DNA from: Gemmatimonadota bacterium
GTDB taxonomy: Bacteria > Gemmatimonadota > Gemmatimonadetes > Gemmatimonadales > GWC2-71-9
Assembly: GCA_029262195.1 (NCBI GenBank)
Contig: JAJCZX010000003.1
Coordinates: forward strand, 17,499-81,498
Direction: 5' to 3'
Length of the DNA: 64,000 nt
In this document: positions 25,372 to 61,083 of the stretch, piece after piece
Layout: each line of letters begins with the position of its first letter
Position numbering within the stretch: position 1 is the stretch's first letter
The notes under the pieces: model-generated
The model's database searches: none
What the model was told of the DNA's origin: nothing
Seen by the model: the letters and a program-made list of their open reading frames with translations, nothing else
Position numbers and translations under genes: made by a program

Positions 25372-26701
25372 CTTTTATACGAGGGCGACCCGCAGCTTCA
25401 CCGCTGGCCAACTCGATCGCATCCAGGCGCCGCCAGTCGGAGTATGAAACGACAGCCGGTTGGCGCGTACGCACAAGGTCGTCAATGACCTCAGGCGAAT
25501 CGTTTTTTGGTTCGAGGTGTTTACCTGCTCGGGCGTCCTCCAGCATCACCCTCGCGGTAGCGTAGCCATCAGGTTTGTTGGTGCCAATTACCCCGCTGGG
25601 GCCCCGTTTTATCCATCCACTAACGTACGCCCCTTTGATCGCAGTGCCAGAATCTGGATCAATAACTCTCCCTTCTAGATTGTTAATGACTCCAGACTGT
25701 TCATCCAGGGGTAAACCGGGCACGGCGACCCCCCTGTAGCCCACGGAGCGAAAAACGAGCCCTACGTTATGTTCTTCGAACTCTGAGGTAGCCACTGCCT
25801 TGAGGCGGTCTCCAGACGCTTCCAGTCGATTTTTCACGATGCGAATGGCCTCTACCTTTTCATTCCCGAGGAGGTCGGTTGGCGAAACCAAAAACCTGAT
25901 TACGAGACGTTTTTCTCTCGAAGTATCTGCGGTGGAGGCAATGCTCTGGGTGATCTCGACCTTGCGCGCGAGTTTCTTGTCGCCTGATTGGTCGAGGAAT
26001 TCCTGGCTTAGCGGGTCCAGTTCAACTTCTGCAGGGATCGTTTGGACGGCGGCCCCCTGCAATTCTCCCAATTCTTGTATTTCCGGGTTCGTGTAGGCGG
26101 CCTGAGCAGGCCCCCTGCGGCCCAGCATCATCACTTCCTTAACATTGCTGTTGCTGAGGGCCTCAAGGGCATGTTCGGCTATATCGCTTTTTTTCAATTC
26201 TTCTGGCGTCAAACAGAGGATCCTGGCTACGTCGACAGCCACGTTCCCGATACCAACAACGGCCACGCGTTTGGCGGTAAGGTCGAATTTGAAATCCCGG
26301 TAATCCGGGTGTCCGTTGTACCAGGCGACGAAATCGGTGGCAGGGTGACTGCCTTCAAGGTCCTCACCCGGTATCCCCATTTTCCGATCTGTCTGGGCGC
26401 CGGTGGCGAAGCACATCAGGTGGTAGTGGTCACGCAACTCGTCGACCGAAACGTGCTTGCCAATGTCGACGTTGCCAAAAAAGCGAAAACGTGGGTGCTG
26501 CGCAATTTTCTCGAACGTCCTGGTCACGTTCTTGATTTTCAGGTGGTCCGGTGCAACTCCGAATCGGACCAATCCGAAAGGGGTAGGCAGCCGATCGAAC
26601 ATATCGACGCCTACCTCAAATTTATCGCTCTTTAGTAAGGCGTCGGCCGAGTAAAAACCGGCCGGGCCTGAGCCGATTACTGCAACTCGAAGTCTTTGCA
26701 A
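25286..26701 (-). CDS. fprA: NADPH:ferredoxin/adrenodoxin reductase (FprA type)
   Basis: Collinear by eye with mycobacterial FprA: VAVIGSGPAGFY, LPTPFGLVRFGVAPDH, VGIGNVAVDVARIL, GRRGPAQAA, SGWIKRGPSGVIGTNK. Confidence 0.85.
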   Translation of the reverse strand: MQRLRVAVIGSGPAGFYSADALLKSDKFEVGVDMFDRLPTPFGLVRFGVAPDHLKIKNVTRTFEKIAQHPRFRFFGNVDIGKHVSVDELRDHYHLMCFATGAQTDRKMGIPGEDLEGSHPATDFVAWYNGHPDYRDFKFDLTAKRVAVVGIGNVAVDVARILCLTPEELKKSDIAEHALEALSNSNVKEVMMLGRRGPAQAAYTNPEIQELGELQGAAVQTIPAEVELDPLSQEFLDQSGDKKLARKVEITQSIASTADTSREKRLVIRFLVSPTDLLGNEKVEAIRIVKNRLEASGDRLKAVATSEFEEHNVGLVFRSVGYRGVAVPGLPLDEQSGVINNLEGRVIDPDSGTAIKGAYVSGWIKRGPSGVIGTNKPDGYATARVMLEDARAGKHLEPKNDSPEVIDDLVRTRQPAVVSYSDWRRLDAIELASGEAAGRPRIKVVSRDDVAAALEQTGESIEPPEDFEFSI

Positions 26702-26768
26702 CAGTTCTTTGCCCGTGATGATGGTTGAAGCAAGTCAGTTCGCCGCCCTGACTAAATAGCCGTTCCGG

Positions 26769-34161: not shown

Positions 34162-35994
34162 TCAGGTCGGTTCCGTCAGGCCCGCGGCGTTCATGACATG
34201 AATCGCATTTCCGCTTTGTAGGACACCGGGCCTGAGTTTGTAGTCGCATGCAAGGTTGGGAGACTCGGAGTCTGTGTCGACCGACTCCTGGAAGTGGACG
34301 TGAGTGCAGGTTTGTTCGACGTCCGCTTCGTCGCGAAACGACAGGTCGTGAGTTGCAAAAACCGTTAGTGCATTGAGCCTGAGCAGGCGTCGTAAGGTTC
34401 GCAGTACTCCTACTTTTCTCTCGTCAGCATTGGTGCCCTGGAGTAGTTCATCGAGCAGGCAAAGTGTGATTGTTCCTTCTTTTCCGGTCTGGTCGATTTT
34501 CTCCAGAATGGACACGAGGCGTTGGACTTCCGCCATAAAAAACGAGACTCCGGCATTCAATGAATCGTGTATACGTCCGCTCGCGACGACGTCCAACTTG
34601 CGTGGCAATACGAGTTCGGCTGCGCATACCGGACTGCCGAGCCGGGCCAGAACGACGTTTGCGCCCAGTGCACGCAGAAGTGTGCTTTTGCCAGACATGT
34701 TTGAGCCGGACAATATTGTAAGAGTCCCCGGCGGCCCGATGGAGAGATCGTTTGTTACGCATACGTTCGGGGCCAATAGAGGATGGCCCACTCCGGTCGC
34801 CTTGATCTCCCTGGCATTCTCGACGAACCTGGGAAACGTCCAGGACAGGTGCCCGTGTCCAACGGCTGCTATAGCGGACAAAGCTTCAAATTCTTTCAGG
34901 TTGGCGAACCAACCCTCTACCTTGTGTCCGTTACGAGCGCGCCATTTTTCCAGTCGCAAGAAAATATGTATATCCCACAGGGTAACGGTCTGAATGATGA
35001 TATGCACGAAATGGGAGTTTCGCACGTCGGCGAGGTTGATCAAACGTTCCAGTTTTTCCAAAGATTCGCGGGCCGTTGAATCATTATTCGAGAGAGCGTC
35101 CTGCCGTCTGCGCAACGATTCGTCATGGAATTTCTGCTCGGAGATGAGTCCGAAAAGCGAAGAAAAACGAAGTCCGCTGTCACTTTGCGGGGAAGCCTTT
35201 TCTATCGCCTCCGCGGTGCGTTTGGAGGTGAACCCCGTAACGACCCAGGCAGCGATTGAGGGGAACAACACCCATGTCGGATCAACGTCGAGGTACAGGG
35301 CTGCGGCTGATGTTAGCACGAAACTCCCGGGGATCAGCCAGGCGAGCGCCCACAGAAGGTTGGTGTGTTTCGCAGTCATCGGACTTGAGGCCCATGAAGA
35401 AAATCTCTGGGTCTGTCGACGACCGACCCGTCCGGCGAGTCTCCCGTAAGCAACAAACCGGTCCCGGAATTCGATTGCTTCGGACAACTCTGCGACTGCG
35501 CCCTGTCTCTCCTCAACAGTGGAACTGTCGGGGGGATCGAGTAGCCAGGAACGGAGCAGTTCAGATCCAAGGGCGGTGGGTGTGGGGTTCAGGAGGTGGA
35601 ATAGAGAAGCGGGCCCCACCACATCAAGGTCTTCGGCAAAAAGGTGCTCGAATGGTGCTTGGGCTGGGAGTGGCAGGGGCAGATCTTCCCAGCGCCGGTG
35701 GATCCGATCCACTGCTTCGTGGTTTACGATTACCAACTGCTCCAGAATCTGAACCTCGCGGAGGGCGGTCGGGTGAATTGCCACTAAACGTGCGAATCCA
35801 ATGAAAAACAGCGCCGCCGCCGCCCACAGAACTATGTCTGGGATTGACGTGAGCGGGCTGAGAAAGAAGCAAAGTACTATGCCGAAAAACGTCAACATTC
35901 GCCAAGTGACAATCTTCGATTCGCGCCGAACAGCCACGGCGAGTTCGGCCTGAAACCGAGCTTCTCGACTCTTATATGTCTCGATAGGGTTCAC
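34162..35994 (-). CDS. Membrane-anchored MutS-related ATPase (MutS domain III/V only)
   Basis: N-terminal TM helices. Walker A GSNMSGKST and Walker B LCLLDELLQGTN. No mismatch-binding domain. GTG start 37 nt downstream of the B12-rSAM gene. Confidence 0.7.
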   Translation of the reverse strand: MNPIETYKSREARFQAELAVAVRRESKIVTWRMLTFFGIVLCFFLSPLTSIPDIVLWAAAALFFIGFARLVAIHPTALREVQILEQLVIVNHEAVDRIHRRWEDLPLPLPAQAPFEHLFAEDLDVVGPASLFHLLNPTPTALGSELLRSWLLDPPDSSTVEERQGAVAELSEAIEFRDRFVAYGRLAGRVGRRQTQRFSSWASSPMTAKHTNLLWALAWLIPGSFVLTSAAALYLDVDPTWVLFPSIAAWVVTGFTSKRTAEAIEKASPQSDSGLRFSSLFGLISEQKFHDESLRRRQDALSNNDSTARESLEKLERLINLADVRNSHFVHIIIQTVTLWDIHIFLRLEKWRARNGHKVEGWFANLKEFEALSAIAAVGHGHLSWTFPRFVENAREIKATGVGHPLLAPNVCVTNDLSIGPPGTLTILSGSNMSGKSTLLRALGANVVLARLGSPVCAAELVLPRKLDVVASGRIHDSLNAGVSFFMAEVQRLVSILEKIDQTGKEGTITLCLLDELLQGTNADERKVGVLRTLRRLLRLNALTVFATHDLSFRDEADVEQTCTHVHFQESVDTDSESPNLACDYKLRPGVLQSGNAIHVMNAAGLTEPT

Positions 35995-36031: not shown

Positions 36032-37381
36032 TCAGGCCAGGGCGGCTTCCAACGCCTGGTAACGCTCAGGGAGCTTCCGAAGGACTTTGCGGTAAAACCC
36101 ACGACGTTCGGCGATGACTGCCGGGTCAAAGAGTCTGCGGTGCAACTCTGCTATGCAGCGTTCGACGGTGTCACCGGACATAAGTGCGGGGTCGTAGACA
36201 GAGTCGTAGTAGGTGCAGCGGTCCCAATAGCTCTCCGACGGAAGCCGGCCCTGTGACAGCAGACGCTCCGTCATCGCGGTCTTTGGCAACGGAGTGGCTA
36301 TGGTTAGTTGAGGCGTGACGTTGGTCTCAAGCACGAATTGCTCAATGCGACTGAACACCGACTCATCGTCGTGGTCCAATCCCACGATGAACGCGCCGAG
36401 GACAATCATGCCGTTTTGTTGAATCCTACCGACGTACTCCCCGTAACTGTCCAGCATTCGGGCTTTGAAGTTGTCCACGCCGCGGAGGTTGTCGGCAGAT
36501 AGACTTTCCAGTCCGACCAGCACCATGACGCAACCCGCCTGGTACATCAGTTCTAGAAGCTCTTCATCTGCGCCAATACCGATATCGGACTGCGCCATGA
36601 AACGAATCCTCATTGGAATGAGAGCACGCAGGAGTTCCTTCGAAAATTTGCGGTTGATGAACATGTTGTCGTCGGCGAACAGGAATAGCTGGTTGGGCGC
36701 TGCAGCCCGGGCCGTTTCAACTTCCGCCACTATTTGCGCAACCGTTTTCTTTCTGAAGGTCTTTCCGTACACCTGAGGCACAGAACAAAAATCGCAGTCG
36801 CGTGGGCAGCCCCTCGTTGTTTGGACGGGGAGCATTCGGTAGCCCTTACCGCGAGAGAAATAATCGTCACCCAGCAGGTCATATCGGGGAACCGGGGATT
36901 CGCTGAGCTGGATGTCTGCCAGAGATGTATTGCGATAGAGGTCCCGGGGTCGTCCGTTACGAAAGTCGCTGAGAAATTGCTGCCACGTTCCTTCGGCTTC
37001 TCCCACGAATACTGTGTCTACGTGTTGAGCAACCTCATCCTCCATAACTGTAGCGTGCGGACCACCCATGACCACGTAAACGCCGCGGTGCCGAAATTCT
37101 GTGGCGATGGAGTATGCACGGGTCGCGTGTTGAGTCATTCCGGAAATGGCGACGATATCGTATGGTCGATCGTAGTCGATATCGGTGACCTGTTCGTCGA
37201 CGTACTCGCATGCAACATCGTCCGGGCACAATGCCGCTACTGTCAGAAGTCCGCAGCTCGGTATCATCCACGGCCGAAACGCCTCCGGGAAATCGCGAAG
37301 GAATGCGGCCATGTGTTCGTTCCGCACCGCGAACTCCCCGTGCGGAAGAATGAGCCCTACTCGAAGTTGGGTCTCAGGCAA
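36032..37381 (-). CDS. B12-binding-domain radical SAM protein (class B rSAM)
   Basis: N-terminal cobalamin-binding-type Rossmann strand (RVGLILP...GLLTVAALCPDD). rSAM cluster TTRGCPRDCDFC. The TTG at 37381 is preceded by GGAGGG. The maximal ORF reaches 37435, also a TTG, which would overlap the ligase gene by 62 nt. Confidence 0.8.
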   Translation of the reverse strand: MPETQLRVGLILPHGEFAVRNEHMAAFLRDFPEAFRPWMIPSCGLLTVAALCPDDVACEYVDEQVTDIDYDRPYDIVAISGMTQHATRAYSIATEFRHRGVYVVMGGPHATVMEDEVAQHVDTVFVGEAEGTWQQFLSDFRNGRPRDLYRNTSLADIQLSESPVPRYDLLGDDYFSRGKGYRMLPVQTTRGCPRDCDFCSVPQVYGKTFRKKTVAQIVAEVETARAAAPNQLFLFADDNMFINRKFSKELLRALIPMRIRFMAQSDIGIGADEELLELMYQAGCVMVLVGLESLSADNLRGVDNFKARMLDSYGEYVGRIQQNGMIVLGAFIVGLDHDDESVFSRIEQFVLETNVTPQLTIATPLPKTAMTERLLSQGRLPSESYWDRCTYYDSVYDPALMSGDTVERCIAELHRRLFDPAVIAERRGFYRKVLRKLPERYQALEAALA

Positions 37382-38474
37382 AACACCCTCCGGGAACCGC
37401 GTCCCTCGTTTCGCGGGCCGATGTTGTGGCTGCAACCACCGCGGACATCAACGCCTCGGCAGGAACTCCGGGCAGACTCCGCCCCTCCTGGGTGTACATG
37501 GCGTCAACGGCTTCGGCTATACTCTTCGTGCTGATGTGAGTGCTCTTCAGTCCTCTCTCAATGGCAGACACAGTGGCGTCATCGGCGAAGAAATCGCCCG
37601 TGATATAGGCTGCTTTGATTGAATCCCCCGTAAGGGTCAGATGAACTTCGAGCAGACCTCCGTCAGTCTTTACCTTGCTCTGGCCGAAAGTCTCAGCCGG
37701 GAAGCTTCTGTTGTCGATCCAGTCCGGGCTCTTGTAGCGGGTTTCTTCGAGGGCATTGATTCCTTCACGCTCCGCCTCGCTGAAACCACTGTCGAGAAAC
37801 TTGATGTCGAAAGCGGTCTGGTACGCTCGTTTGATAAGCTGCCGAACTTCGGGAATGGAGATGGAAGTTCCCGTTTCTTTTCGGAGTGTCGTCACTCTTT
37901 TCGAAACGGTCTTGATGTGTTTGTCGGAAATCTTCTCCCACGGAGTTCGCAGCGTGTTCAGCATCAACTCAACGTCGAGATCGACGAGCAAGCTGGTGTG
38001 AAAAAGTAGCCCACCTTTTCGATCGAAGTAAAAACCCATGCCGGCTATTTTCCGCCCGTCTACTTCGATGTCATTCTTGCGGTGGAACGATCCGGATATT
38101 CCGACCCCAGTCAGCGCGTCGACGACCCCTCGGGCGTAGTGATGGAAAAGTTCTCGCACACCGAGGTTTCTCTTTTTATTCTGTTCGCGCGGCACCGTGA
38201 TGGCGAGGCCGAGTTGGTCGGCGCCCATGAGAATAGCACCGCCGCCGGTCGGTCTCCTGTTAATCTCGATATTGTTCGCTTTGCAGTAGTCCTGGCGAAT
38301 CTCTGAATCGAGGTGCTGGAATCGCCCGATCAGAGCGCAGTGGGATTTATACGTATAGAGTCTGAGAAGCGGAGCTCCGTCCGAACGGGTAGTCATGTAT
38401 TCGTCCGCTGCAAGCCCAAAGCTCGCCGATACCTGTTCGTCCGCGATGTATCGCCACTCCTGTCGCTTACTCAT
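37374..38474 (-). CDS. Lipoate-protein ligase family protein, paralog 2 (LplA-like catalytic and C-terminal domains)
   Basis: RRPTGGGAILMG and GRKIAGMG (catalytic Lys context). ATGA overlap with the upstream paralog. Confidence 0.75.
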   Translation of the reverse strand: MSKRQEWRYIADEQVSASFGLAADEYMTTRSDGAPLLRLYTYKSHCALIGRFQHLDSEIRQDYCKANNIEINRRPTGGGAILMGADQLGLAITVPREQNKKRNLGVRELFHHYARGVVDALTGVGISGSFHRKNDIEVDGRKIAGMGFYFDRKGGLLFHTSLLVDLDVELMLNTLRTPWEKISDKHIKTVSKRVTTLRKETGTSISIPEVRQLIKRAYQTAFDIKFLDSGFSEAEREGINALEETRYKSPDWIDNRSFPAETFGQSKVKTDGGLLEVHLTLTGDSIKAAYITGDFFADDATVSAIERGLKSTHISTKSIAEAVDAMYTQEGRSLPGVPAEALMSAVVAATTSARETRDAVPGGCFA

Positions 38475-39505
38475 GGCAGGGGTGCGGCGCTCCACTCGCG
38501 GAGTCGGTTTAGCATCTCGTGTTCAGCGTGCAGGTGTGGGTTAGACGCGAGTATTTGGTCGATAGGCCCGTCGGGATGCCAACCACGAAAGGCAGCCTGC
38601 AAGTCCTCAAGAGGCGGGTCAAGTACAATGTCGTCGATCGCGCCGTCGAGCATACGAACGGTGAACCGGTGGCGCGATCCGTTCAGCTGCACTTCATCCT
38701 CCCGCACAGAAACCCGGGCGGAGACCTTTAACGTGTCGTTCGCGACGCTCCCTTTTTTGTGAACCCACTCTGGCGAACCCAGCTGGGCTCCGATGGAAGC
38801 TAAACGGTGGCTCTCTCTCTCTGTGAGTTCCCCCTGCACTATCTCCCGGTTTAAAGCTGCGGAGTAAGCGTCCACCAGGAGGGCAGTGACTACTCCCATC
38901 GAGGGCGGCCGTGGGAGTTCTTCCTTCAACGTGGTGAGGCAATTTTTCAATCCAGTCTCTACCAGAGAGCGAAAAGACTCGGAAGGAGCCTGCCACAGAC
39001 GGATCATCTTCTCGCGGGGAAAATCGAAAAGAATGTTCCCTACGACTACAGTTGCGTCTCGTATCTGTCCCGCGCCCGTGCCGGCGATGCGCTTTCCTCT
39101 CACCTCGATTTCGTTGGGCGGTTTGAGCTCGGCGGAAATGCCGAGTTGCTGGAGAACGGAGACGGGTGCTGAAAGGAAACGGTCGTACATCGCATCCACT
39201 CTGGCGGGCGTGCGAGTCCGGTTGAAGATGCATTGGTAAAACAACTGGTCGTTGTCCAGATAGACCGCGCCACCTCCCAGCTTGCGACGGAGAATAGGTA
39301 CTCCTTTATAGCGACATGCGCCGAGGTCGAGACGAGTGTCTACCTGCTGATGATAGCCCACGCAGAGGTACGGCTCCCGAGGAGCAAGGAGCACGATCGT
39401 GTCCGGCGTTTGGTCGTCCATCGTCTCGGCGATGCAGTGGTAAATCGATTGCGACTGGAGAAAGGGTACCGTCCCCAGGTTCAGCAGCCGGATCGCGTCC
39501 ATCAC
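38471..39505 (-). CDS. Lipoate-protein ligase family protein, paralog 1
   Basis: RRKLGGGAVYLD and GKRIAGTGAG motifs. Its start overlaps the stop of the upstream rSAM gene (GTGATG). Confidence 0.75.
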   Translation of the reverse strand: MMDAIRLLNLGTVPFLQSQSIYHCIAETMDDQTPDTIVLLAPREPYLCVGYHQQVDTRLDLGACRYKGVPILRRKLGGGAVYLDNDQLFYQCIFNRTRTPARVDAMYDRFLSAPVSVLQQLGISAELKPPNEIEVRGKRIAGTGAGQIRDATVVVGNILFDFPREKMIRLWQAPSESFRSLVETGLKNCLTTLKEELPRPPSMGVVTALLVDAYSAALNREIVQGELTERESHRLASIGAQLGSPEWVHKKGSVANDTLKVSARVSVREDEVQLNGSRHRFTVRMLDGAIDDIVLDPPLEDLQAAFRGWHPDGPIDQILASNPHLHAEHEMLNRLREWSAAPLP

Positions 39506-40584
39506 GCCATGATCTCGTGCAACCGAAGCTGGTCTGCGATGATTTGTTGGTCGCTTAGAATCGGAAGGAATGGATAGTCCCGAAACTCTTCGCCCGGTTT
39601 GTAGCTGCCAAAGGGTCGATTGCAGGCAACCTCTCCTTCTTCATCGGGGCACCCTTCAGTCATGAACGGACGACCGCTTGAAATCAACTGGTCGACTAAA
39701 GATCTCTCGGCCGCCAGATGGTTGATGAAGCCGTCGTTGTCAAAACGGATTCGGCTCCGAGCCAACTGGGAATCCTCGATGAGGTGTTTCACCAATTGGA
39801 TTCGTCGCCAGCGGTGCAGGGGGGCACGCGGAACGTTTGCCATTGCTGTTCCGGGCTCCGGGTTAAAGGAAAAGAGGTAGCCTGCTACATCGATGTCCTT
39901 CAACCGGTAAAACAGTTCTACCAACTCTTCGTCAGTTTCGCCAAGCCCTACAACGACGTGGCAGTTCACGTTCATGGGGCCATACATCTCGCGGGCGGCT
40001 TCGACGATATACCAATGGTGGTCCCACGTGTGCGGCCCTTTCGCGGTGCGACCCCTCGTTTTTTCAAACACATCTTCGCTGGCCGCATCCAGTCCCAGGC
40101 CCACGATATCGGCTCCGGCGTCTTTGAAGTCCCGAAGTGAATCAACGTCGAGGAGGTTAGCACTAACGAGCGCGGAGATGAGGACATCTGATTTTGCACG
40201 AACTCGTCTTGTCATGTCGATCAGATCGGCGTTGGCCCGTTTGTCATGAACCTGAGCTATACAAACGCGACCGATCTTCTCCCTGTGCTCGGCGATACGG
40301 TCAGCGACAAGGTCCGTTTCGAAAAGCGGCCATCCCACCCGAATGAACGAGTTGTCTTCGGCAGCCCCCGGGCGCTCCCGGGCCAGGCCACAATACGTGC
40401 AGTTGGCCCAACACCCCTCGGGGTAGTTCTGCAGCAAGTTGATACAGCGTGTAACGCCGTCTCTGTAGAAGCGTCCCTTCTCGAGCCCCAGCACCATCGC
40501 AGCAGCGACGCTTATGCGCACATGCTCCGGGCTGATCTTCAGGTGCTCCGCCTGTTCGGCGACGGGGAGTAGTGTTTTGGTCAT
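39502..40584 (-). CDS. Radical SAM protein, LipS1/LipS2-type lipoyl synthase component
   Basis: CxxxCxxC motif CWANCTYC. Lies in a lipoate-ligase/LbpA operon. Confidence 0.65.
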   Translation of the reverse strand: MTKTLLPVAEQAEHLKISPEHVRISVAAAMVLGLEKGRFYRDGVTRCINLLQNYPEGCWANCTYCGLARERPGAAEDNSFIRVGWPLFETDLVADRIAEHREKIGRVCIAQVHDKRANADLIDMTRRVRAKSDVLISALVSANLLDVDSLRDFKDAGADIVGLGLDAASEDVFEKTRGRTAKGPHTWDHHWYIVEAAREMYGPMNVNCHVVVGLGETDEELVELFYRLKDIDVAGYLFSFNPEPGTAMANVPRAPLHRWRRIQLVKHLIEDSQLARSRIRFDNDGFINHLAAERSLVDQLISSGRPFMTEGCPDEEGEVACNRPFGSYKPGEEFRDYPFLPILSDQQIIADQLRLHEIMA

Positions 40585-40684: not shown

Positions 40685-41632
40685 TCACCAGTTCACCCCG
40701 CAGCACGCGTCGTGGAAATGGGGAGTCAACCCCTGTTGGGTTGCGTATTCGACCATTCCCTCGGCGGGGTATGCGATTCCGTTCAATCCAGCATCGATCG
40801 CGAATCGGTCGATTCTTTTTTTCGATTCGCCGTAGGGCCGGGCGCAACCCAGCATTATCGGAGTATCTGGAAGCGTGCGGCGTGCTTTGTTGAAGAACGC
40901 TCCGACCTCCTCCGGGGCCGGGGGGGCGACATTTGCCATCGGTGTGCCGTACAGAGGCATGAAAACCACTATTACCAGGACCTTCGGCGGGTAGGATGCG
41001 ATAAGTTCGAGCGCCCGTTTCTCACCGAGCATCCTTCCGAAATGAAGTCCTAGAATGATATGGGGAATGGTGGGGACGCCGTGACGTTGGAGGCGCTCCA
41101 GTGTTCTTTCATACTCATCAACACCGTAGTCGAGGTGGTAAACCTCTTTGATGGTTTCTTCGGCGCCAATGATGTCGACCATAGCTCCGTCGATTCCAAC
41201 TTCTGCGAGTCCCTCGGCAACCTCCTCGCTAACCAGGCCGGGGTGGACTCTAATTGTCAGGCCCAATTCCCGTCGTACGCGCTTGAGGTCTTCCATGTGT
41301 TGGAGTAGCGGGACACGCCCCTGGCGGTCGCTGCCGCCCGATACCAATACTCCACGCGCTCCCTTCGCCGCTATTTCCTGGCAGGTTTCGAAGAGGCTCT
41401 TGTTTTGCGGCACGTCGTCCATGCGCAGGAGGACCTTGGTGTTGCAGTGTTCGCACTTCAAGGCGCACGCGTCGCCGGTAACGCTAACCGACACGAAAGC
41501 CCGTTCGTCCTGGGACGCGTATTCGGTGGTTTTGAATTTCTTGAGCCCGGGAGCGTAGAAGTGGATGTCCTTTATGTTAACCGGATCCCTGCTCGTTTGT
41601 GACCCGGAGTAACTAATATGCGGCGCGGCCAC
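40685..41632 (-). CDS. Radical SAM protein, LipS1/LipS2-type lipoyl synthase component
   Basis: CxxxCxxC motif CALKCEHC. The GTG start directly abuts the lbpA stop (TAGGTG). Confidence 0.65.
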   Translation of the reverse strand: MAAPHISYSGSQTSRDPVNIKDIHFYAPGLKKFKTTEYASQDERAFVSVSVTGDACALKCEHCNTKVLLRMDDVPQNKSLFETCQEIAAKGARGVLVSGGSDRQGRVPLLQHMEDLKRVRRELGLTIRVHPGLVSEEVAEGLAEVGIDGAMVDIIGAEETIKEVYHLDYGVDEYERTLERLQRHGVPTIPHIILGLHFGRMLGEKRALELIASYPPKVLVIVVFMPLYGTPMANVAPPAPEEVGAFFNKARRTLPDTPIMLGCARPYGESKKRIDRFAIDAGLNGIAYPAEGMVEYATQQGLTPHFHDACCGVNW

Positions 41633-42070
41633 CTACACCCATCCGTTGTCTACGTAACGTGCCACTTCTGTCTCTGCCCAGTCCTGAATGGCATCGGTCC
41701 CTTCGACGAGGTCACCTTCGCCATCCGGGTCGTCAGGCTCGATACTGAACAACCAGCCGTCTCCGTATGGGTCATCAACGATTATTCCCGGGGAGGCGAC
41801 TGTTTCTTCGTTTATTTCGACTACCACGCCCGAAATCGGGGCGACGATTGAACTGACCATCTTTTCGGCCTCGAGCGACCCGACGTCGTCGCCCAGCGCC
41901 ACCGGGGTACCAACGTCGGCGATTTCGAGATGCACAACGTTACCGAGTGCTTCGACGGAAAGGGAATCGAGCCCGACCACGAGTTTGTCGCCGTCGGCGC
42001 GAAGCCAGAGGTGTTCCCTCATGTCGTATTTCAGATCGTCAGGGAACTCGAAATTATCAACCGTTACCAT
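41633..42070 (-). CDS. lbpA: GcvH-like lipoate-binding protein (LbpA)
   Basis: GcvH fold signature with the lipoyl-lysine context SLEAEKMVSSIVAPISGVVVEIN. The ATG at 42070 has GGAGAA upstream; the maximal ORF starts at 42091. Confidence 0.8.
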   Translation of the reverse strand: MVTVDNFEFPDDLKYDMREHLWLRADGDKLVVGLDSLSVEALGNVVHLEIADVGTPVALGDDVGSLEAEKMVSSIVAPISGVVVEINEETVASPGIIVDDPYGDGWLFSIEPDDPDGEGDLVEGTDAIQDWAETEVARYVDNGWV

Positions 42071-42130
42071 TTGTGATTTCTCCAAATGCATAGTTCGTCG
42101 GGCCGATCGAAAGGTGCCGCAACCTCAAAA

Positions 42131-42188: not shown

Positions 42189-42270
42189 TGGTTCGCAAGA
42201 AAGACCGGGCTTGATGCTGACAGATACCCTTGGGTGTCCGGTTTTGCTCCTACAACTAGAAGAAAATTTT

Positions 42271-42573
42271 ATGGCCTCAATCGAGTTGTTGGAAAAAGAA
42301 GTTCTTGATCGCGCGGCTAATGTCATCAAATGTCTGGGGCATCCGCTGCGTCTCCGTCTCCTGGCAGTTCTTGAAGAAGGAGAAAAGACGGTTACGGAGC
42401 TTCAGGAACGAAGTGATGCGACACAGGCAACCGTCTCCCAGCAGCTTGCAACACTCCGCGGGCGGGGAATCGTTGATTGCCGGCGTGAAGGAGCCAACGT
42501 CTTTTATTGGACAATTGAGCCGAAGGTATCAAAGATCCTGGACTGTATCAGTCAGTGTGATCGCGGCTTTTGA
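42271..42573 (+). CDS. shdrR: ArsR/SmtB-family transcriptional regulator (sHdrR/SqrR-like, Cys-containing)
   Basis: Winged-HTH signature LGHPLRLRLLAVLEEGEKTVTEL...ATVSQQLATLR. Four Cys residues. Divergent from the lbpA operon and upstream of tusA-shdr. Confidence 0.75.
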   Translation: MASIELLEKEVLDRAANVIKCLGHPLRLRLLAVLEEGEKTVTELQERSDATQATVSQQLATLRGRGIVDCRREGANVFYWTIEPKVSKILDCISQCDRGF

Positions 42574-42751: not shown

Positions 42752-42991
42752 ATGTCGGACGTTCAAGTTGACGAAACTCTCGATTGCAAGGGCATGCTCT
42801 GTCCCCTTCCCATTGTGAAACTCTCCAAGACCTTCAAGGCGCTCGACTCGGGCAAGGTCGTCCTGCTGCTGGCTACCGACCCCGGTTCCGAACCTGACAT
42901 CGCGGCGTGGGAGAAACGCACCAAGAACCAGGTCTTACAAAAAGACAAAGAGGGCGATGTCTTCAAGTTCTGGATCAAGAAAACGGCCTGA
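42752..42991 (+). CDS. tusA: TusA-family sulfur carrier protein
   Basis: LDCKGMLCPLPIVK (CPxP active-site motif). 79 aa. AGGAG Shine-Dalgarno. Confidence 0.9.
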   Translation: MSDVQVDETLDCKGMLCPLPIVKLSKTFKALDSGKVVLLLATDPGSEPDIAAWEKRTKNQVLQKDKEGDVFKFWIKKTA

Positions 42992-43008
42992 ACAGGGCGG
43001 GAGAAACA

Positions 43009-43380
43009 ATGTCTTCGATTGTCTATGTGCATACTGGCGGCGTAAACACACCAGAGCGTTCGGCCACTCCTATTTACCTCGCCTCCACGGCTGCGGCCAT
43101 GGATGTCGAGGTCGGTATCTACTTCACGGTTAACGGCCCCCAGTTGCTGGAAAAAGGGGTGGCGGAAAAACTGATCGTACCGAAGCATGATGGTGAGGGT
43201 GCACCGCTTATCAAGTTCATCACCCAGGCACAGGAACTCGGTGTAGAGTTTTACGTTTGCCAACCGAGTCTGGACCTTCACGGCCTTAAGGCCGACGACC
43301 TGATCGACGGAGTGAACATGATAGGGGGAGCTGCGTTTAACGACATGGCTCTCGACGCTGACCAAGTCATTTGCTTCTAA
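43009..43380 (+). CDS. dsrE: DsrE-family sulfurtransferase (DsrE3-type)
   Basis: DsrE/DsrF-like fold pattern (IVYVHTGG...IYFTVNG) with a conserved Cys in EFYVCQPS. I prefer the ATG at 43009 over the maximal ORF, which would overlap tusA. Confidence 0.7.
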   Translation: MSSIVYVHTGGVNTPERSATPIYLASTAAAMDVEVGIYFTVNGPQLLEKGVAEKLIVPKHDGEGAPLIKFITQAQELGVEFYVCQPSLDLHGLKADDLIDGVNMIGGAAFNDMALDADQVICF

Positions 43381-43391: not shown

Positions 43392-44081
43392 GTGACCCTG
43401 GCGCCAAACACCTACACCGACATCCCATACGAGGAAAAAGCCAAACTCATCGAAGAGGTGATGGCGGACCATCGTTATGGAGAACACCTTTACGGCTGTT
43501 ATGAGTGTGGTATCTGCGTTGCCGCCTGCCCTTCGGCTCGGTTTTACGATTTTTCCCCACGCAAAATAGCCCAGGCTGCTGCGAGGCAGGACGTCGAATT
43601 GATGTACGAGCAGATGAACGACGACGTCTGGAACTGTTCACAGTGTTTTTCCTGCACCAGGTGTCCGCGCGGTAATAACCCCGGGGGGATCATCACTGTG
43701 TTGCGTGAAGTTGCAGTTCGCAACGGCCTGGCTTCGGCGCGCGACGCACTTGAGGGTTATGGAAGAGTGGTCTACAAGATCATGTCGACCGGAACCCAGG
43801 TGTCGCCCGATATGCTCCAACCAAACGCGTTTCCCGACTGGGGCCCGCATGTGAAAGCTATCTCCGACAACGTTGAGACATGGCGAAAGGCGTTGCCGCC
43901 CGAGACGCTCCACACCACGAGCACGGCGTGGAACGTTGATGAGAAAACCATCATCGAACTCTACCTCATCTGGCAGGCCACCGGCGTGATGGACATGATC
44001 GGCGAAGTTGACGAAGGACTGCACATGATTCTCGAGGACGTCATGGAAGATGTTCTCGACGAAGCGGGCTACGAAACGTGA
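43392..44081 (+). CDS. shdrC1: Heterodisulfide reductase-like subunit C1 (two [4Fe-4S] motifs)
   Basis: CYECGICVAACP and CSQCFSCTRCP. Confidence 0.8.
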   Translation: MTLAPNTYTDIPYEEKAKLIEEVMADHRYGEHLYGCYECGICVAACPSARFYDFSPRKIAQAAARQDVELMYEQMNDDVWNCSQCFSCTRCPRGNNPGGIITVLREVAVRNGLASARDALEGYGRVVYKIMSTGTQVSPDMLQPNAFPDWGPHVKAISDNVETWRKALPPETLHTTSTAWNVDEKTIIELYLIWQATGVMDMIGEVDEGLHMILEDVMEDVLDEAGYET

Positions 44082-44121
44082 TGGTGGAAATCCGACTGGT
44101 TAAATTTGAAAGGGATCCTGC

Positions 44122-45306
44122 ATGAGTCTTGAATTACCGGTCCTGAAGGAGAGACGCGCCGAACGGAAAAACGCGCCCCCTCCCACAGAAGATGTCAGAG
44201 AGAAGGTTTTCGAGATCGAAGCGCAAGGCGATTGGATTGTACATCGCGTTCCCGACGATCACGTTGAGGTTTTTACCAAATATGGACGGGTCAAGAAGAT
44301 TCCCCGGCAGAACCTCTGGCACCACAAGTCCTGTGGCCAATGCGGTCATATTCCCGGATACTCTACCGCCATTTTTTGGCTAATGCGAAAACTTGGTCTC
44401 GCGTATGAAGATCCCACCGACCAAACCTCCTGTACGGCCTGGAACTACTATGCCTCTGCGACTTCCAATGCGGCAGCCCAGGCGGGGGTAGCAATGAGGA
44501 ATTTTGGGGCGGCGTATGAAGCGGGGAACTACCCGTTGATCCATTGTGGTACGTCTTATGGTCACTATAAAGAAGTCCGCGAGGAGTTGATCCACGATCC
44601 TGAGCTTCGCAAGCAGGTGAAGGGAATAATGGAAAAGCTGGGCAAGCCCTTTGTCATGCCGGAAGAAATTGTTCACTACAGCGAGTGGGTGTACGCAATG
44701 CGTAGGGAGCTTGCCAACCTCAAAGTTCTCGACTTTTCGGACATCACCGCCACAGTTCACCCGGCCTGTCACTACCACAAGCTGGTGGTAGAAGATGCGA
44801 TATATGACCGGGACATCTACGATGGTCAGCGCACCGCCGTGGTAACCGCGGTGGTCGAAGCGCTGGGTGCCAATATCGGTGAGTATTCCACCTGGTACGA
44901 CTGCTGTGGTTTCGGGTTTCGACACATTCTGGTTGAACGCGATTTTACTCGCTCCTTTGCAATTGAACGCAAAATTGAAGTCATGAAAAAGGAAGCCAAT
45001 CCGGATGTGGTCCTGACACACGATACCGGTTGCGTGACAACCCTTGACCAGAGCCAGTTTGCCGGACGGGCGCATGACAGGGACGTGGGCATTCCCGTGC
45101 TCTCCGATGCGCAGTTCGCCGCTCTGGCAATGGGGGCCCACCCTTACAAAGTCTGCCAGTTACACTGGCACAATACCGACAACAAACCCTTGCTGGAAAA
45201 AATGGGAATAGACCACGAATCAAAATGGGCGGAGTTCGAAGAGGAACTCCGGATGATAGAAGCTGGTGAAAAGGAGTTTCTGACCTGGGAGGACGCCGAT
45301 GGCTAA
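44122..45306 (+). CDS. shdrB1: Heterodisulfide reductase-like subunit B1 (CCG domains)
   Basis: Cys-rich CCG-domain motifs (CGQCGH..., HPACHYH, WYDCCGFGF, TGCVTT). Confidence 0.8.
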   Translation: MSLELPVLKERRAERKNAPPPTEDVREKVFEIEAQGDWIVHRVPDDHVEVFTKYGRVKKIPRQNLWHHKSCGQCGHIPGYSTAIFWLMRKLGLAYEDPTDQTSCTAWNYYASATSNAAAQAGVAMRNFGAAYEAGNYPLIHCGTSYGHYKEVREELIHDPELRKQVKGIMEKLGKPFVMPEEIVHYSEWVYAMRRELANLKVLDFSDITATVHPACHYHKLVVEDAIYDRDIYDGQRTAVVTAVVEALGANIGEYSTWYDCCGFGFRHILVERDFTRSFAIERKIEVMKKEANPDVVLTHDTGCVTTLDQSQFAGRAHDRDVGIPVLSDAQFAALAMGAHPYKVCQLHWHNTDNKPLLEKMGIDHESKWAEFEEELRMIEAGEKEFLTWEDADG

Positions 45307-46348
45307 GGACGTATTGATCGTCGGCGGCGGGCCCGCCGGATTGCATGCCGCTCGCAACATCGCGGACATCGGAGGCAATGCGATTCTCGTTGAACAGCGT
45401 GATGTTCTGGGAGGGACACCCGACGAAGCCCGGTATGCTGCTCTGACTCCGCACCTCGAGTCGGCACAGGACGCGTTGGATGAGATGAGAGCTGCGGTTA
45501 TCGACCGGCCAGAAATCGATTTGCGATTGGGTTCCACCGTGCTCGAAAGCTCAGGTAAGGCTGGCGACTTCAAAGTTTCGGTCGCCAAAAATGGCGGAGA
45601 GGCTGAACAGCTCGATGTCGGGTCGGTGATCCTGACTACCGGGTTCCAACATTTTGATCCGGGTCGTGAGACTCAGATGTACGGTTATTACGAAAACCCT
45701 GACGTTATCACACTGGTCGACGCCGAGAAGATGTTGAGTAAGCACGAATTTGTGAGGCCGTCAAACGGGGAAAAGCCTGAACGGGTTGCGTTTATTCAGT
45801 GTGTTGGCTCGCGGGACCGTCGTCTTGGTAACGAGTACTGCTCCAAGGTTTGCTGCGGTATCGCATCGAAAGAGGCAATTGAAATACGGAAGCTGTTGCC
45901 CGACACCAAGGTTTACATCTTCTACATCGACATGAGGATGTATGGCTACTGGGAGAATCAGCTGTACTGGCCGGCGCAGGAGGAACACAATGTCATATAT
46001 GTGCGTGGGATCGTAACCGAAATTCTCAAACGGGGCGACCGTCTCCTTATGAAGGGCGAAGACACAACGATGGGTCGCCCTATGGAGGTGGAGATGGACG
46101 TCATTGTTCTGTCGGTTGGGATGGAGCCCAGCGCTGGCACCCGTGAGATGGCTCGTGTCTTTGATATAGAGAAGAACAAATACGGATTCATCCATACTCC
46201 GGGCGAACCGATGGATCCGGTAAGTACCTCCGTGCCGGGGGTTTATGTGGCTGGGGCTGCGGCTGGTCCCAAGGACATCGAGGACAGTATCGGGATGGCG
46301 AGTGCGGCTGCGATGAAAGCGCTGGCTATGGTTCGGTCGGCCGGGTGA
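45299..46348 (+). CDS. shdrA: Heterodisulfide reductase-like subunit A (FAD plus [4Fe-4S] flavoprotein)
   Basis: VLIVGGGPAGLHAA dinucleotide fold. HdrA cluster motif CVGSRD...YCSKVCC. 8-nt overlap with shdrB1. Confidence 0.85.
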   Translation: MAKDVLIVGGGPAGLHAARNIADIGGNAILVEQRDVLGGTPDEARYAALTPHLESAQDALDEMRAAVIDRPEIDLRLGSTVLESSGKAGDFKVSVAKNGGEAEQLDVGSVILTTGFQHFDPGRETQMYGYYENPDVITLVDAEKMLSKHEFVRPSNGEKPERVAFIQCVGSRDRRLGNEYCSKVCCGIASKEAIEIRKLLPDTKVYIFYIDMRMYGYWENQLYWPAQEEHNVIYVRGIVTEILKRGDRLLMKGEDTTMGRPMEVEMDVIVLSVGMEPSAGTREMARVFDIEKNKYGFIHTPGEPMDPVSTSVPGVYVAGAAAGPKDIEDSIGMASAAAMKALAMVRSAG

Positions 46349-47103
46349 CACAGGTGACTGATTCTGGCACCCGGGTTCTCGACGCGCCCAGCGCAGTCGA
46401 GTTCATGCGTGAGGCGCTTGTCAAAATTTCCGAATCGGAAATTGCCGAGGTTGCATCCCAACTAGAGCAACGTAGAGATCTGTTGTTTCCCATGCTCGAG
46501 CGGGTCATCGATGGGCGTGGAAGCGTCGGAGATCTATCGACGTTGTGGCGTGGCGTCTTTGTTACGCGGAGAACAGCCACCGACCTATCAGCTTCCCGCA
46601 CGATGGAGAGTTGGGCGGAAAGTTTGCGCGAGCTGGTAAAGGGCCAGGATGATTTGCCGGTTCGGTTCAGTCGTTTCGATGCCGCATTACACCAACATGA
46701 AGAGTCCTTTCGACGCGACCTGGCCGGCGAGATGCTCAGGCTTTTTGACCCCGATGAATACTGGCTGTGGTCACGTTGGATGTGGAATGAAAAAACCGAT
46801 ACCGGGTCTCTTCCGCTTGTACTGGCGGAGGGGTTTGATCTCTCAGGGGACACTGCGGGAGAGATTTACCTGAAAGTCGGTGACGCTACGAAAGTTGTGA
46901 TAGATACCGCAAGCGAGATTGGTTTTGCCGGCATGAAGGCCAACTGCTACGCGGTCGACGTTTATCTCTGCGCCATTTATGGCATTTACCTCTACACCGT
47001 AACCCGTATGCGAATGACACAGGAGTTCAATCGGGTGATTCCCAAACTACCGGAGTTGGTTCGCCGTATGCTGGGTGTCCATCGCCTTGAGGTGGGATCG
47101 TGA
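46345..47103 (+). CDS. shdrH: sHdrH-position protein, function unknown
   Basis: 252 aa with no cofactor motifs. GTGA overlaps on both sides (with shdrA and with the HdrC/B fusion). Confidence 0.6.
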   Translation: MTQVTDSGTRVLDAPSAVEFMREALVKISESEIAEVASQLEQRRDLLFPMLERVIDGRGSVGDLSTLWRGVFVTRRTATDLSASRTMESWAESLRELVKGQDDLPVRFSRFDAALHQHEESFRRDLAGEMLRLFDPDEYWLWSRWMWNEKTDTGSLPLVLAEGFDLSGDTAGEIYLKVGDATKVVIDTASEIGFAGMKANCYAVDVYLCAIYGIYLYTVTRMRMTQEFNRVIPKLPELVRRMLGVHRLEVGS

Positions 47104-48380
47104 GTCGCGTCGATAAAACCGAGGGCTCAATTGAAAAAGCCGAAGCCGTAGTTGACGGAGTTGATATTTCCGGACACTGGAACCGGATGTTGGAGCCCCG
47201 CTGGATCACTGATTACCCAACGGAGGCGATGGACTGGGTGACGAGCCTGGATGGGGGCGAATCCCTCAGAGCCTGCTACCAGTGTGCCAAGTGCGTGCCC
47301 GTTTGCCCTGTCGAACATGTTGGCTCTTACGGGCCACGGAAGCTCATGCGGAAGGTGCAACTCGGGAACAACCTCATGGAGGACCCTGACCTATGGTTGT
47401 GTACTTCGTGTGCGGCGTGTTTGCGGGTGTGTCCCAAAGAAGTGGACATGCTTCAGATAATGCCTGCGATCAGAGAGCAAGCGGTCCTCGAAGGTCATGT
47501 TCCCCCGGAATTGGCTAAGGCGTTTGAAAACATGGGGAGGCACGGTAACCCTCTGGGCCAACCGTCGCGCAAGCGTATTGCCTGGACCAAAGGTTTTGAT
47601 GTCGAAGTTCCAATCATGTCCAAGATCAAACGCAAGGTTGACGTGCTCTGGTATGTCTCGGACTACACGTCTTACCATCCCCGCGGCCACGATGCAGCCA
47701 GAGCTATGGCCCGTGTGCTCACGCGACTGGGAATTGATTTTGCCATACTTGGCCAGGAAGAAAAATGCGACGGAGATTCCCCACGCGTCGCCGGAGAGAA
47801 GGGGTTGTTCGAAATGCTGGCGGAAGAGAATATCGCCACCTTCGACAAGTATGAGTTTGACAGGCTAGTCGTCATGGACCCGCATGCGTACAACGCTTTT
47901 AAGAACCATTATCCTGCACTGGGTGGGGATTACAACGTTTTGCACTACACTCAACTTCTGGTCGACTATATCGACAGGATGGAGTTCAGCGAAACTTTGG
48001 ACATGGAAGTCACTTTCCACGATCCATGCTATCTGGGTCGTCACAACGGAGAGTACGAGGCGCCACGGAAACTTCTTGAGGCTATACCGGGAGTGAAACT
48101 CACGGAGATGCCGCACTACAAGGCCACCGGTTTTTGTTGCGGTGGTGGCGGCGGAGGAATGTGGTTGGACGGGTTTGCTGCCGATCACCAGAGTGAGCGA
48201 CTGAGCGAGCGAAGGGTGAAGGAAGCTGTCGAAGTAGGTGCTCAGACGCTCGCCGTGACCTGTCCTTACGAGCCCTCCCGTTTCGAAGACGCAGTCAAAA
48301 GCACAGGCAACGACGGAAGCCTTGAAGTTGCGGATATCATCGAACTATTAGACAGAGCCATGGGGCTCTCGGAGTCGTAG
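47100..48380 (+). CDS. shdrB3: HdrC-HdrB fusion protein (sHdrB3-type; two [4Fe-4S] motifs plus two CCG domains)
   Basis: CYQCAKCVPVCP and CTSCAACLRVCP, then FHDPCYLGR and GFCCGGGGG. Collinear with the soluble part of the Emo-like protein. Confidence 0.75.
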   Translation: MSRVDKTEGSIEKAEAVVDGVDISGHWNRMLEPRWITDYPTEAMDWVTSLDGGESLRACYQCAKCVPVCPVEHVGSYGPRKLMRKVQLGNNLMEDPDLWLCTSCAACLRVCPKEVDMLQIMPAIREQAVLEGHVPPELAKAFENMGRHGNPLGQPSRKRIAWTKGFDVEVPIMSKIKRKVDVLWYVSDYTSYHPRGHDAARAMARVLTRLGIDFAILGQEEKCDGDSPRVAGEKGLFEMLAEENIATFDKYEFDRLVVMDPHAYNAFKNHYPALGGDYNVLHYTQLLVDYIDRMEFSETLDMEVTFHDPCYLGRHNGEYEAPRKLLEAIPGVKLTEMPHYKATGFCCGGGGGGMWLDGFAADHQSERLSERRVKEAVEVGAQTLAVTCPYEPSRFEDAVKSTGNDGSLEVADIIELLDRAMGLSES

Positions 48381-48383
48381 CAG

Positions 48384-50131: not shown

Positions 50132-50132
50132 G

Positions 50133-52718: not shown

Positions 52719-52728
52719 GACGCTTTTA

Positions 52729-53181: not shown

Positions 53182-53206
53182 GATTCGAGATTGAAAGGAG
53201 CAGGTT

Positions 53207-53782: not shown

Positions 53783-53821
53783 TAAAAGTTAGAAGTCAGA
53801 AAGTTCACCGACCTAAAGGGC

Positions 53822-55363: not shown

Positions 55364-55372
55364 GGGAATAAA

Positions 55373-58264: not shown

Positions 58265-58462
58265 CCGGTCGTCGTTGATTTGCGCGTTGGGCTCCAGCGA
58301 CCGTATTCTAGTTTGAACCGATAGCTCCGGGGCTCGGGGACGTAGGTTGGTTGGGTTTGGGCGTGAGCAGAAACTGGTGTCGGAAGGCCGACAACGATGA
58401 CGCGCGCGAATCGTTAGCCTCAGACGATACTTGAGCACCTTTTCCGTAAGTGAAACAAAGAA

Positions 58463-61015: not shown

Positions 61016-61040
61016 GGATTGACGATGGTAGGGTGTTAGG

Positions 61041-61083
61041 AAAAAAGCGCCGCTCCCGTACTGGCAGGGGCGGCGCTTTTTTT
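61041..61083. terminator. Bidirectional Rho-independent terminator
   Basis: AAAAAA, GCGCCGC (61047..61053), a 16-nt loop, GCGGCGC (61070..61076), TTTTTTT. Lies between convergent genes. Confidence 0.8.

Follow-up and report, generated by a model that had tools for sequence, protein, structure and literature searches.

A B12-type radical SAM gene in the LbpA lipoylation gene set

We analysed a stretch of 64,000 nucleotides (nt) from a Gemmatimonadota bacterium (assembly GCA_029262195.1, contig JAJCZX010000003.1, positions 17,499 to 81,498; hereafter the window), in which a tightly packed gene set on the minus strand, in the order lbpA-lipS1-lipS2-ligase-ligase-B12 radical SAM, stands beside a sulfur-oxidation island of the heterodisulfide reductase-like (sHdr) type (Table 1). 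The last gene of this set encodes a radical S-adenosylmethionine (SAM) protein with a B12-binding domain, here called the B12 enzyme. Across related loci it is repeatedly and specifically linked to the LbpA lipoylation genes, and the linkage has outlasted rearrangement of the clusters. Taken as a whole, the analysis suggests an undescribed extra step in making the lipoate cofactor of LbpA.

Table 1. Features of the window, with coordinates, strand and basis of assignment (aa, amino acids; HTH, helix-turn-helix; L039, the public contig identical to the window).
Feature	Coordinates	Strand	Basis and remarks
B12-binding-domain radical SAM protein	36032-37381	minus	449 aa from TTG 37381; Pfam and orthologue alignment
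Lipoate-protein ligase, sLpl(AB)-like	37374-38495	minus	373 aa, catalytic domain plus Lip_prot_lig_C (LplB-type); PF21948, PF10437; TIGR00545 at 180 bits, below cut-off
LplA/LipB-type protein	38471-39505	minus	344 aa, catalytic domain only; PF21948 only
LipS2-like radical SAM lipoyl synthase subunit	39502-40584	minus	NF053743, 207 bits, below the cut-off of 270
LipS1 radical SAM lipoyl synthase subunit	40685-41632	minus	NF053742, 246 bits, above the cut-off of 230
LbpA, GcvH-like, LEAEKM type, first operon gene	41633-42091	minus	PF01597 (GCV_H)
ArsR-type HTH regulator, divergent from lbpA	42214-42573	plus	Pfam HTH_20 and HTH_5 on L039; coordinates converted from L039
tusA and dsrE-type sulfur transferase genes	42752-43380	plus	Pfam TusA and DsrE on L039
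Type II sHdr core: shdrC1, B1, A, H, B3, etfB, etfA, emo	43392-52274	plus	Open reading frames; Pfam CCG, Fer4, Pyr_redox_2, ETF; tblastn cross-matches
Two further LbpA paralogues, ESxKWVGP type	52293-53181	plus	tblastn; alignment A3
MutS-like ATPase	34162-35994	minus	MutS domains III and V
DsrE_2 protein	53207-53782
Fused 4Fe-4S/NrfD protein	53822-55363
Molybdopterin oxidoreductase	55373-58264		963 aa

The open reading frame of the B12 enzyme was confirmed on the minus strand at 36032-37435 (467 aa counted from the first TTG). Pfam places a B12-binding domain (PF02310) at residues 62-152 (41.4 bits, cut-off 32.1) and a Radical_SAM domain (PF04055) at residues 205-359 (51.5 bits, cut-off 29.5), and the radical SAM core carries the cluster motif TTRGCPRDCDFC (CPRDCDFC). 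The three cysteines of this CxxxCxxC motif (C210, C214 and C217, numbered on the 467-aa reading frame) are invariant across 21 orthologues and in 70 wider homologues; beyond them, C302 and C407 are the only invariant cysteines in the 21-orthologue alignment. In total 138 columns are invariant among the orthologues, and the SGMTQ, GG(P/A)HAT and GEAEG motifs of the Rossmann domain are invariant or nearly so. The enzyme is evidently under strong purifying selection. An earlier reading of the locus from its letters alone (the sequence-only reading) had described this reading frame as a radical SAM protein with a B12-type N-terminal domain, and Pfam and the motif bear this out.

The B12 enzyme has no NCBIfam equivalog. 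HpnJ was the top match, and the models for HpnJ, BchE and the ladderane-lipid family (TIGR03471, TIGR02026, TIGR04072) reached 86, 73 and 78 bits, respectively (cut-offs 578, 481 and 360). The LipS1 and LipS2 models (NF053742, NF053743), both of which match neighbouring genes, gave no match to the B12 enzyme at E ≤0.01. Only the B12-binding and Radical_SAM domains were detected in the protein, which has neither a GxGxxG motif nor a domain for flavin adenine dinucleotide (FAD) or nicotinamide adenine dinucleotide (NAD), and it therefore does not belong with the flavoprotein LipT.

The stop codon of the upstream ligase gene is the TGA at 37374-37376. A start at TTG 37381, 4 nt upstream of which stands GGAGGG, overlaps the ligase gene by 8 nt, and the alternative TTG 37435 would overlap it by 62 nt; this is the junction as given in the sequence-only reading, and it was confirmed on recomputation. 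The public call for an identical protein (P0001, 426 aa) begins at ATG 37312, leaving a gap of 61 nt to the ligase. The residues upstream of ATG 37312, LRVGLILPHGEF, are conserved, with P31 and N39 invariant in the 21-orthologue alignment, and most orthologues begin right at this segment, with MRIGLI. The only start codons that keep the segment are TTG 37381 and the far-upstream TTG 37435. Because conserved orthologue residues precede ATG 37312, TTG 37381 is the best start, and the predicted 449-aa form is the most likely gene product. The gene is read as co-transcribed and translationally coupled with the LbpA lipoylation genes of the type II sHdr island.

The gene ends the lipoylation gene set, as had been proposed. 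Whether it is also the last gene of the operon is uncertain, because a same-strand gene for a MutS-like ATPase follows and no terminator-like site lies between them; pattern scans for promoters and terminators gave no signal above shuffled controls either between the ligase and radical SAM genes or after the radical SAM gene. The MutS-like protein, encoded 37-133 nt 3' of the radical SAM gene, has a hydrophobic N-terminus and a weak match to KamC, an ATPase that reactivates a B12-dependent aminomutase (69 bits, cut-off 300). It was considered as a reactivase for the B12 enzyme, a candidate that stayed weak, the match being poor and the gene absent from every other linked locus. No cobalamin or SAM riboswitch, nor any other Rfam family, and no tRNA was found in the window.

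Linkage to LbpA and sHdr genes is conserved through three gene orders

In total, 132 loci were gathered from genome and metagenome collections and by exact-protein look-ups, and their flanks were searched with the window proteins. The B12 enzyme belongs to a close, sharply bounded clade comprising about 30 sequence clusters, which share 55-76% identity with the window protein; the next homologues in the protein search are at most 48% identical. All informative loci encoding a protein at least 56% identical, with the exception of two (L001 and L007), lie inside clusters of sHdr, LbpA, LipS1, LipS2 and ligase genes, and every linked locus is a type II sHdr cluster. The source labels of the clade comprise Gemmatimonadota, Nitrospinota, 'Deltaproteobacteria' and 'Gammaproteobacteria'.

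Three gene orders were observed. In order A the B12 gene closes the series lbpA-lipS1-lipS2-ligase-ligase-B12 (the window, L042/L048 and L046, and the short partial contigs L047, L049 and L055). Order B, found in L041, reads ligase-lbpA-lipS1-ligase-lipS2-B12-HTH-tusA-dsrE-shdr. Order C reads shdr-etfAB-emo-174aa-B12-small zinc-ribbon protein-ligase-lipS1-lipS2-lbpA (L043, L050-L053 and L044/L045/L054). The distance to the upstream gene is short throughout: where that gene is a ligase, it is -8 nt in the window and L049, -1 nt in L042 and L048, +1 nt in L047 and L055, and +13 nt in L046; it is -4 nt behind lipS2 in L041 and +10 nt behind the 174-aa gene in L043, L044 and L050. One further contig, L002, begins inside the gene and is uninformative upstream, and the DUF302 gene downstream of it matches that of L042 (order A).

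At the roughly 108 loci with homologues no more than 50% identical, no lipoate or sHdr neighbours were found, apart from a single stray cross-match in L123, where an sHdrB3/Emo-like gene with a CCG domain lies some 9 kb away from the homologue. The sequence-only reading had taken the gene for an unassigned extra component tied to the LbpA lipoylation genes; the conserved linkage supports that view and confines it to a narrow clade rather than extending it to the whole B12 family. In four of five same-locus comparisons the B12 enzyme is conserved at least as well as LipS1 and LipS2. Comparing the window with L043, for example, gives 61% identity for the B12 enzyme and 48% each for LipS1 and LipS2; only between the window and L042/L048 does the B12 enzyme fall slightly lower, at 65% versus 66% and 70%.

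Outside these clusters, the copy in L007 (58% identical; positions 10001-10973; metagenome-assembled genome labelled 'Gammaproteobacteria') has decayed: the core of its Rossmann domain is deleted and the reading frame is shifted. Its neighbours are the transporter genes CitMHS, PhoU and PHO4, and it lies outside any sHdr context.

Many type II clusters also carry, with emo and lbpA, a conserved pair of small genes, one for a protein of 165-179 aa that matches no family and one for a CxxC...CxxC protein of 84-94 aa (L043:9466-9990 and 11352-11636, with equivalents in L044, L046, L127 and L128). The pair flanks the B12 gene in order C and is absent from the window, and its zinc-ribbon-like member appears split in L046.

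The clade is nested among radical SAM proteins paired with acyl carrier proteins

The nearest relatives of the clade (35-48% identical) mostly adjoin a gene for an acyl carrier protein (ACP), usually in the order adenosine monophosphate (AMP)-binding ligase, ACP, radical SAM. Among 108 distant loci an ACP gene lies within 5 kb in at least 62 and within 300 nt in at least 37, and an AMP-ligase gene is present in at least 47, these counts being lower bounds from tblastn, with two query sequences used for ACP. Neither an ACP nor an AMP-ligase gene was found at any of the 21 close-group loci. In a neighbour-joining tree of 147 proteins, midpoint-rooted and without support values, all LbpA-linked proteins together with that of L001 fall into a single clade, which nests among the ACP-linked proteins. 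On the available sequences the clade is shown to descend from a carrier-protein-associated family, and its nesting would imply a swap of ACP and an adenylating (acyl-AMP) ligase for LbpA and an LplA-type adenylating ligase.

Several of the more distant loci have distinctive architectures. In L119 (4642-13855) and L100 (4737-13836), a giant PilZ/methyltransferase protein, an AMP-binding ligase, an ACP, a B12-type radical SAM protein and a hybrid histidine kinase/receiver/HD-GYP protein are encoded in this order, the giant protein of L119 alone containing a LuxD-type acyltransferase region. L132 (9407-14763) has the kinase/HD-GYP, radical SAM, ACP and AMP-ligase part only, and signal peptidase S26 genes lie near the cassette in L119 and L132. 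At Clostridia-type loci (L004, L006, L018-L025, L072, L126) the B12-type radical SAM genes form arrays, with three to five paralogues inside some 10 kb; ACP, ketoreductase, acyltransferase or alpha/beta-hydrolase genes lie near several of them (e.g. L004, L006, L018).

Related clusters without the enzyme, and a second third radical SAM protein

A reverse survey with LipS1 as the query recovered four clusters whose LipS1 is 64-69% identical to that of the window (L127-L130). L128 has the layout of order A with a hydrolase gene at its end in place of the B12 enzyme, and neither L127 nor L128, both type II clusters, carries a third radical SAM gene. Since these close clusters do without one, the enzyme is not needed for lipoylation as such; it is dispensable, or optional.

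In L129 (11990-13087) and L130 (12017-13108), two type II sHdr/LbpA clusters that lack the B12 enzyme, a different and unrelated radical SAM gene stands directly after lipS2 and before tusA. The encoded proteins (363-365 aa) have a CNIRCxGC motif and a C-terminal cysteine cluster, RRCCTxxxRxCxSCFDTW, of the SPASM/twitch type; the two copies are 72-74% identical, have weak Pfam matches and no NCBIfam equivalog. The presence of an unrelated radical SAM protein in the same slot suggests that a third radical step recurs there, and a third radical SAM protein beside LipS1 and LipS2 appears to recur by way of two unrelated families, with some clusters having none.

Whether or not a cluster carried the B12 enzyme, no FAD-type, LipT-like gene was found among its lipoate-assembly genes, L127 and L128 included, and the sole flavoprotein nearby, in L127, matches sulfide:quinone reductase. 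A complementary distribution of the B12 enzyme and LipT was therefore rejected, and because the B12-free clusters likewise have no FAD-type gene, the B12 enzyme is unlikely to be a replacement for LipT. The sequence-only reading had seen no LipT-like protein in the window. This holds for the longest non-overlapping open reading frames of at least 120 codons, among which an N-terminal GxGxxG occurs only in sHdrA and a 482-aa Pyr_redox_2 protein (25286-26734); the profile-library scan covered a part of the open reading frames.

Other genes of the operon and the sulfur-oxidation island

The upstream genes of the operon are as the sequence-only reading had described them, namely LbpA, two radical SAM proteins and two ligases. 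The lipoyl-lysine column is invariant in the LbpA alignment (A3). Both ligase types are present in most linked loci long enough to reveal them and also in the B12-free L128 and L130; the 344-aa type is found in L127 as well and, cut by the contig end, in L129. This catalytic-domain-only paralogue could possibly act as an octanoyl- or lipoyl-transferase instead of a ligase.

A type II sHdr system is defined by shdrC1B1AHB3 and etfAB lying within one syntenic cluster (PMC11094781), and the window has this arrangement, with shdrC1B1AHB3 and etfAB syntenic (reading frames at 43392-50131) and emo at 50133-52274. Downstream of emo and the two LbpA paralogues lie the DsrE_2, 4Fe-4S/NrfD and molybdopterin oxidoreductase genes, and an Omp85-family protein and a TauE sulfite exporter are also encoded within 52293-61968. 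The molybdopterin oxidoreductase set may represent an enzyme of the sulfite-oxidising or polysulfide type. Rho proteins from Gemmatimonadota genomes share 87-90% identity with the one encoded in the window.

Predicted structure and the question of cobalamin

An AlphaFold model built from 70 homologues was of high confidence (predicted local distance difference test score 92.8, predicted template-modelling (TM) score 0.91) and has an N-terminal domain with a beta-alpha Rossmann fold. Fold matches, with TM-scores normalised by query length and all at most 20% identical to the query, were headed by two chains of AprD4 (TM 0.74, E 2e-20), followed in third rank by MgmA (TM 0.61). Further matches were OxsB (0.57-0.66), MiaB (0.58-0.64), TsrM (0.58-0.63), TokK (about 0.57), CysS (0.56-0.57) and RimO (0.51-0.56). 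Those to TsrM, OxsB, TokK and MgmA came at a probability of 1.0; together with the PF02310 match and the fold of the model they mark the N-terminal domain as one of the Rossmann-type, B12-binding kind. By sequence, the best match in the PDB was MgmA (9ccb, E 2e-13, about 18% identity), and the N-terminal domain alone gave a weak match to the N-domain of a radical SAM structure, 4Q37 (E 0.13).

The likeness to MiaB and RimO is at domain level only: the respective family models reach 21-25 bits, with cut-offs of 251-357, and no TRAM domain was matched. An auxiliary cluster of the MiaB type was rejected, there being no invariant cysteine in the N-terminal 200 residues.

Use of cobalamin by the enzyme is plausible. 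It is compatible with a PF02310 match above the gathering cut-off and with the SGM (SxL-like), GG(P/A)HAT and GEAEG motifs being invariant or nearly so. The classical DxHxxG motif was not identified; class B radical SAM enzymes generally do without it. What holds the assignment at plausible is the best fold match, since AprD4 does not bind cobalamin (PMC12931638). The enzyme might accordingly have a Rossmann-like N-terminal domain of structural significance only, and would then carry out a radical dehydration, a rearrangement or the formation of a C-C or C-S bond, not methyl transfer. Against this stand the Pfam match and the invariant motifs, the weak resemblance of the isolated domain to 4Q37, and a score of 55.9 bits against a cut-off of 500 for the AprD4 family model (NF033070), despite the TM-score of 0.74 to 6FD2. 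We consider an enzyme without cobalamin somewhat unlikely; the question is separate from that of the target, and either answer is compatible with any of the target readings weighed below.

Proposed function and its alternatives

We tentatively propose, at a level of belief approaching an even chance, that maturation of the LbpA cofactor includes the B12 enzyme as an optional third radical enzyme, which would tailor the LbpA-tethered octanoyl or lipoyl arm. The main reason for favouring the carrier-tethered C8 arm as the substrate is that a trio of adenylating ligase, small carrier protein and B12-type radical SAM protein has been retained, with a change in the identity of the partners. In the sequence of events envisaged, the ligase or ligases would attach octanoate to the LbpA lysine, and two sulfurs would be inserted by LipS2 and LipS1, with the B12 enzyme acting before or after. 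It would use a 5'-deoxyadenosyl radical, probably together with cobalamin, on an unactivated carbon of the C8 arm. The product would be a non-canonical lipoyl group. C-methylation, the default for this enzyme class, would be the first guess, though we rate it as unlikely. Modification of the LbpA-bound arm was one of two possibilities raised in the sequence-only reading, and the nesting among relatives paired with AMP-ligase and ACP strengthens it indirectly.

A wider proposal would be that in a subset of type II sHdr oxidizers LbpA carries a radical-SAM-tailored arm (e.g. a C-methylated dithiolane), made by an enzyme recruited from an acyl-ACP-modifying family, and that the family seen in L129 and L130 was independently recruited to the same slot, which would point to a general, so far unseen step of maturation. 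We hold this to be doubtful.

Several observations weigh against arm tailoring. Substrate and chemistry are inferred, and the ancestry that points to an acyl chain comes from tblastn counts with two ACP queries and from a tree without support values. The top structural match is an enzyme that does not bind cobalamin. A third radical SAM gene is missing from the type II clusters L127 and L128, and a search of alignment A3 for LbpA features specific to clusters carrying the B12 enzyme gave none, the two LbpA types occurring both with and without it. Finally, L001, which holds the nearest relative other than the window protein itself (76% identical), has an intact gene that follows a MOSC-domain gene; its upstream 4.2 kb contain no lipoate gene, and the contig extends 380 nt further downstream. 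In this locus (L001:886-4118) an 803-aa protein without family match is encoded along with the MOSC-domain protein ahead of the clade gene. The metagenome-assembled genome is labelled Gammaproteobacteria, whereas the window is Gemmatimonadota by its Rho protein, and transfer or mis-binning is a possibility.

The alternative that survives best is that the enzyme serves the type II sHdr system by acting on another target. This might be an amino acid of LbpA, of an sHdr subunit or of EMO, by analogy with MgmA and Mmp10, two B12 radical SAM enzymes whose target is methyl-coenzyme M reductase, or else another cofactor of the system. The restriction of the linked loci to type II sHdr clusters fits this view, and so does order C, where the gene sits between the emo/174-aa genes and the small CxxC...CxxC protein and not directly after a lipoate gene; orders A and B, however, couple it directly to a ligase gene or lipS2. 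Among PDB entries MgmA ranks first by sequence and third by fold, but at about 18% identity and with a family model score of 70 bits against a cut-off of 360, and the partners of the clade's nearest relatives are acyl carrier proteins rather than protein or peptide substrates. We regard a target of this kind as unlikely.

Even less probable is a role in support of the LipS1/LipS2 cycle, in which the enzyme would replace the electron donor LipT or re-supply sulfur or iron-sulfur clusters; substitution in this cycle was the second possibility of the sequence-only reading. The fold likeness to the sulfur-inserting MiaB and RimO (TM about 0.6) and the lack of a LipT-like flavoprotein next to the B12-linked clusters, and among the reading frames checked in the window, speak for such a role. 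Against it, the protein has neither an FAD or NAD domain nor an invariant N-terminal cysteine for a MiaB-type auxiliary cluster, and L127 and L128 have neither the B12 enzyme nor an FAD-type gene among their lipoate-assembly genes. LipS1 and LipS2 moreover function without such a partner (PMC10332631; PMC9585515).

That the gene is a passenger with an unrelated function (e.g. lipid or small-molecule modification), co-transferred with the island, is similarly improbable: the intact copy in L001 and the rarity of a clade with labels from several phyla, which suggests horizontal transfer of the whole island, speak for it, and the persistence of linkage with coupled junctions through three rearranged gene orders, the strong purifying selection and the decay of the out-of-context copy in L007 speak against it.

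Should a dedicated radical enzyme indeed tailor the LbpA arm, the product would be the first natural lipoyl variant, with direct consequences for the handling of substrate by sHdr. Lipoate counts as an invariant cofactor, and sHdr-LbpA is the one case in which it has been proposed to carry sulfur and not acyl groups. The observed linkage also offers a first idea of what a large and uncharacterised family of B12-type radical SAM proteins may act on, namely acyl chains borne by small carriers of protein nature. If the enzyme is instead a helper without a chemical product of its own, the parts list of the poorly studied type II sHdr systems is still refined. The hypothesis lends itself to co-expression and mass spectrometry, tools already in use in the field.

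Comparison with known systems

Lipoate assembly in sHdr oxidizers and archaea has been described as the work of sLpl(AB), LipS1/LipS2 and LipT (Cao et al. 2018, PMC6067878; Tanabe et al. 2023, PMC10332631). In these descriptions the radical SAM proteins number exactly two and are joined by one flavoprotein, LipT, with no B12-type enzyme, in agreement with what the sequence-only reading had said of the published route; neither founding paper mentions cobalamin or B12 (PMC6067878; PMC10332631). A full-text literature search, whose coverage excluded subscription journals, found no paper linking a B12-type radical SAM protein to LipS, LbpA or sHdr. The window operon resembles this pathway in having LbpA, LipS1, a LipS2-like protein and LplA-type ligases beside shdr, tusA and dsrE. 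It differs in a coupled third radical SAM protein of class B type, in a second, catalytic-domain-only ligase paralogue, and in that LipT was not found in the operon or the checked reading frames.

With MgmA/QCMT and Mmp10, the B12 radical SAM methylases of methyl-coenzyme M reductase, the B12 enzyme would share the role of an accessory maturase for an enzyme system partnered with heterodisulfide reductase. The differences are a TIGR04014 score of 70 bits against 360, a substrate that in their case is a protein side chain, and the lack of methyl-coenzyme M reductase here. AprD4, a radical SAM 1,2-diol dehydratase (6FD2), is alike in fold (TM 0.74 over about 450 residues), two-domain layout and length, whereas its identity is 20%, it acts on an aminoglycoside, it binds no cobalamin (PMC12931638) and its genomic context is unrelated.

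The class B enzymes TokK/ThnK and CysS, which act on pantetheinylated substrates, have the same Rossmann N-terminal domain and radical SAM core (TokK and CysS at fold probability 1.0, TM about 0.57) and a similar genomic logic of small carrier protein and loading enzyme. Their identity to the B12 enzyme is 12-17%, and the putative carrier here is a lipoyl-domain protein with an amide-linked C8 chain instead of a phosphopantetheine thioester. Closest in the tree are the uncharacterised cassettes of AMP-ligase, ACP and B12 radical SAM protein, which share the domain layout and the motifs RGCP..C.FC, DDNMF, AQSDI, TIATPLP.T and WDRCT. Their neighbours are ACP, AMP-binding ligase, ketoreductase, acyltransferase, PilZ-methyltransferase and histidine kinase/HD-GYP genes and not LbpA, LipS or sHdr.

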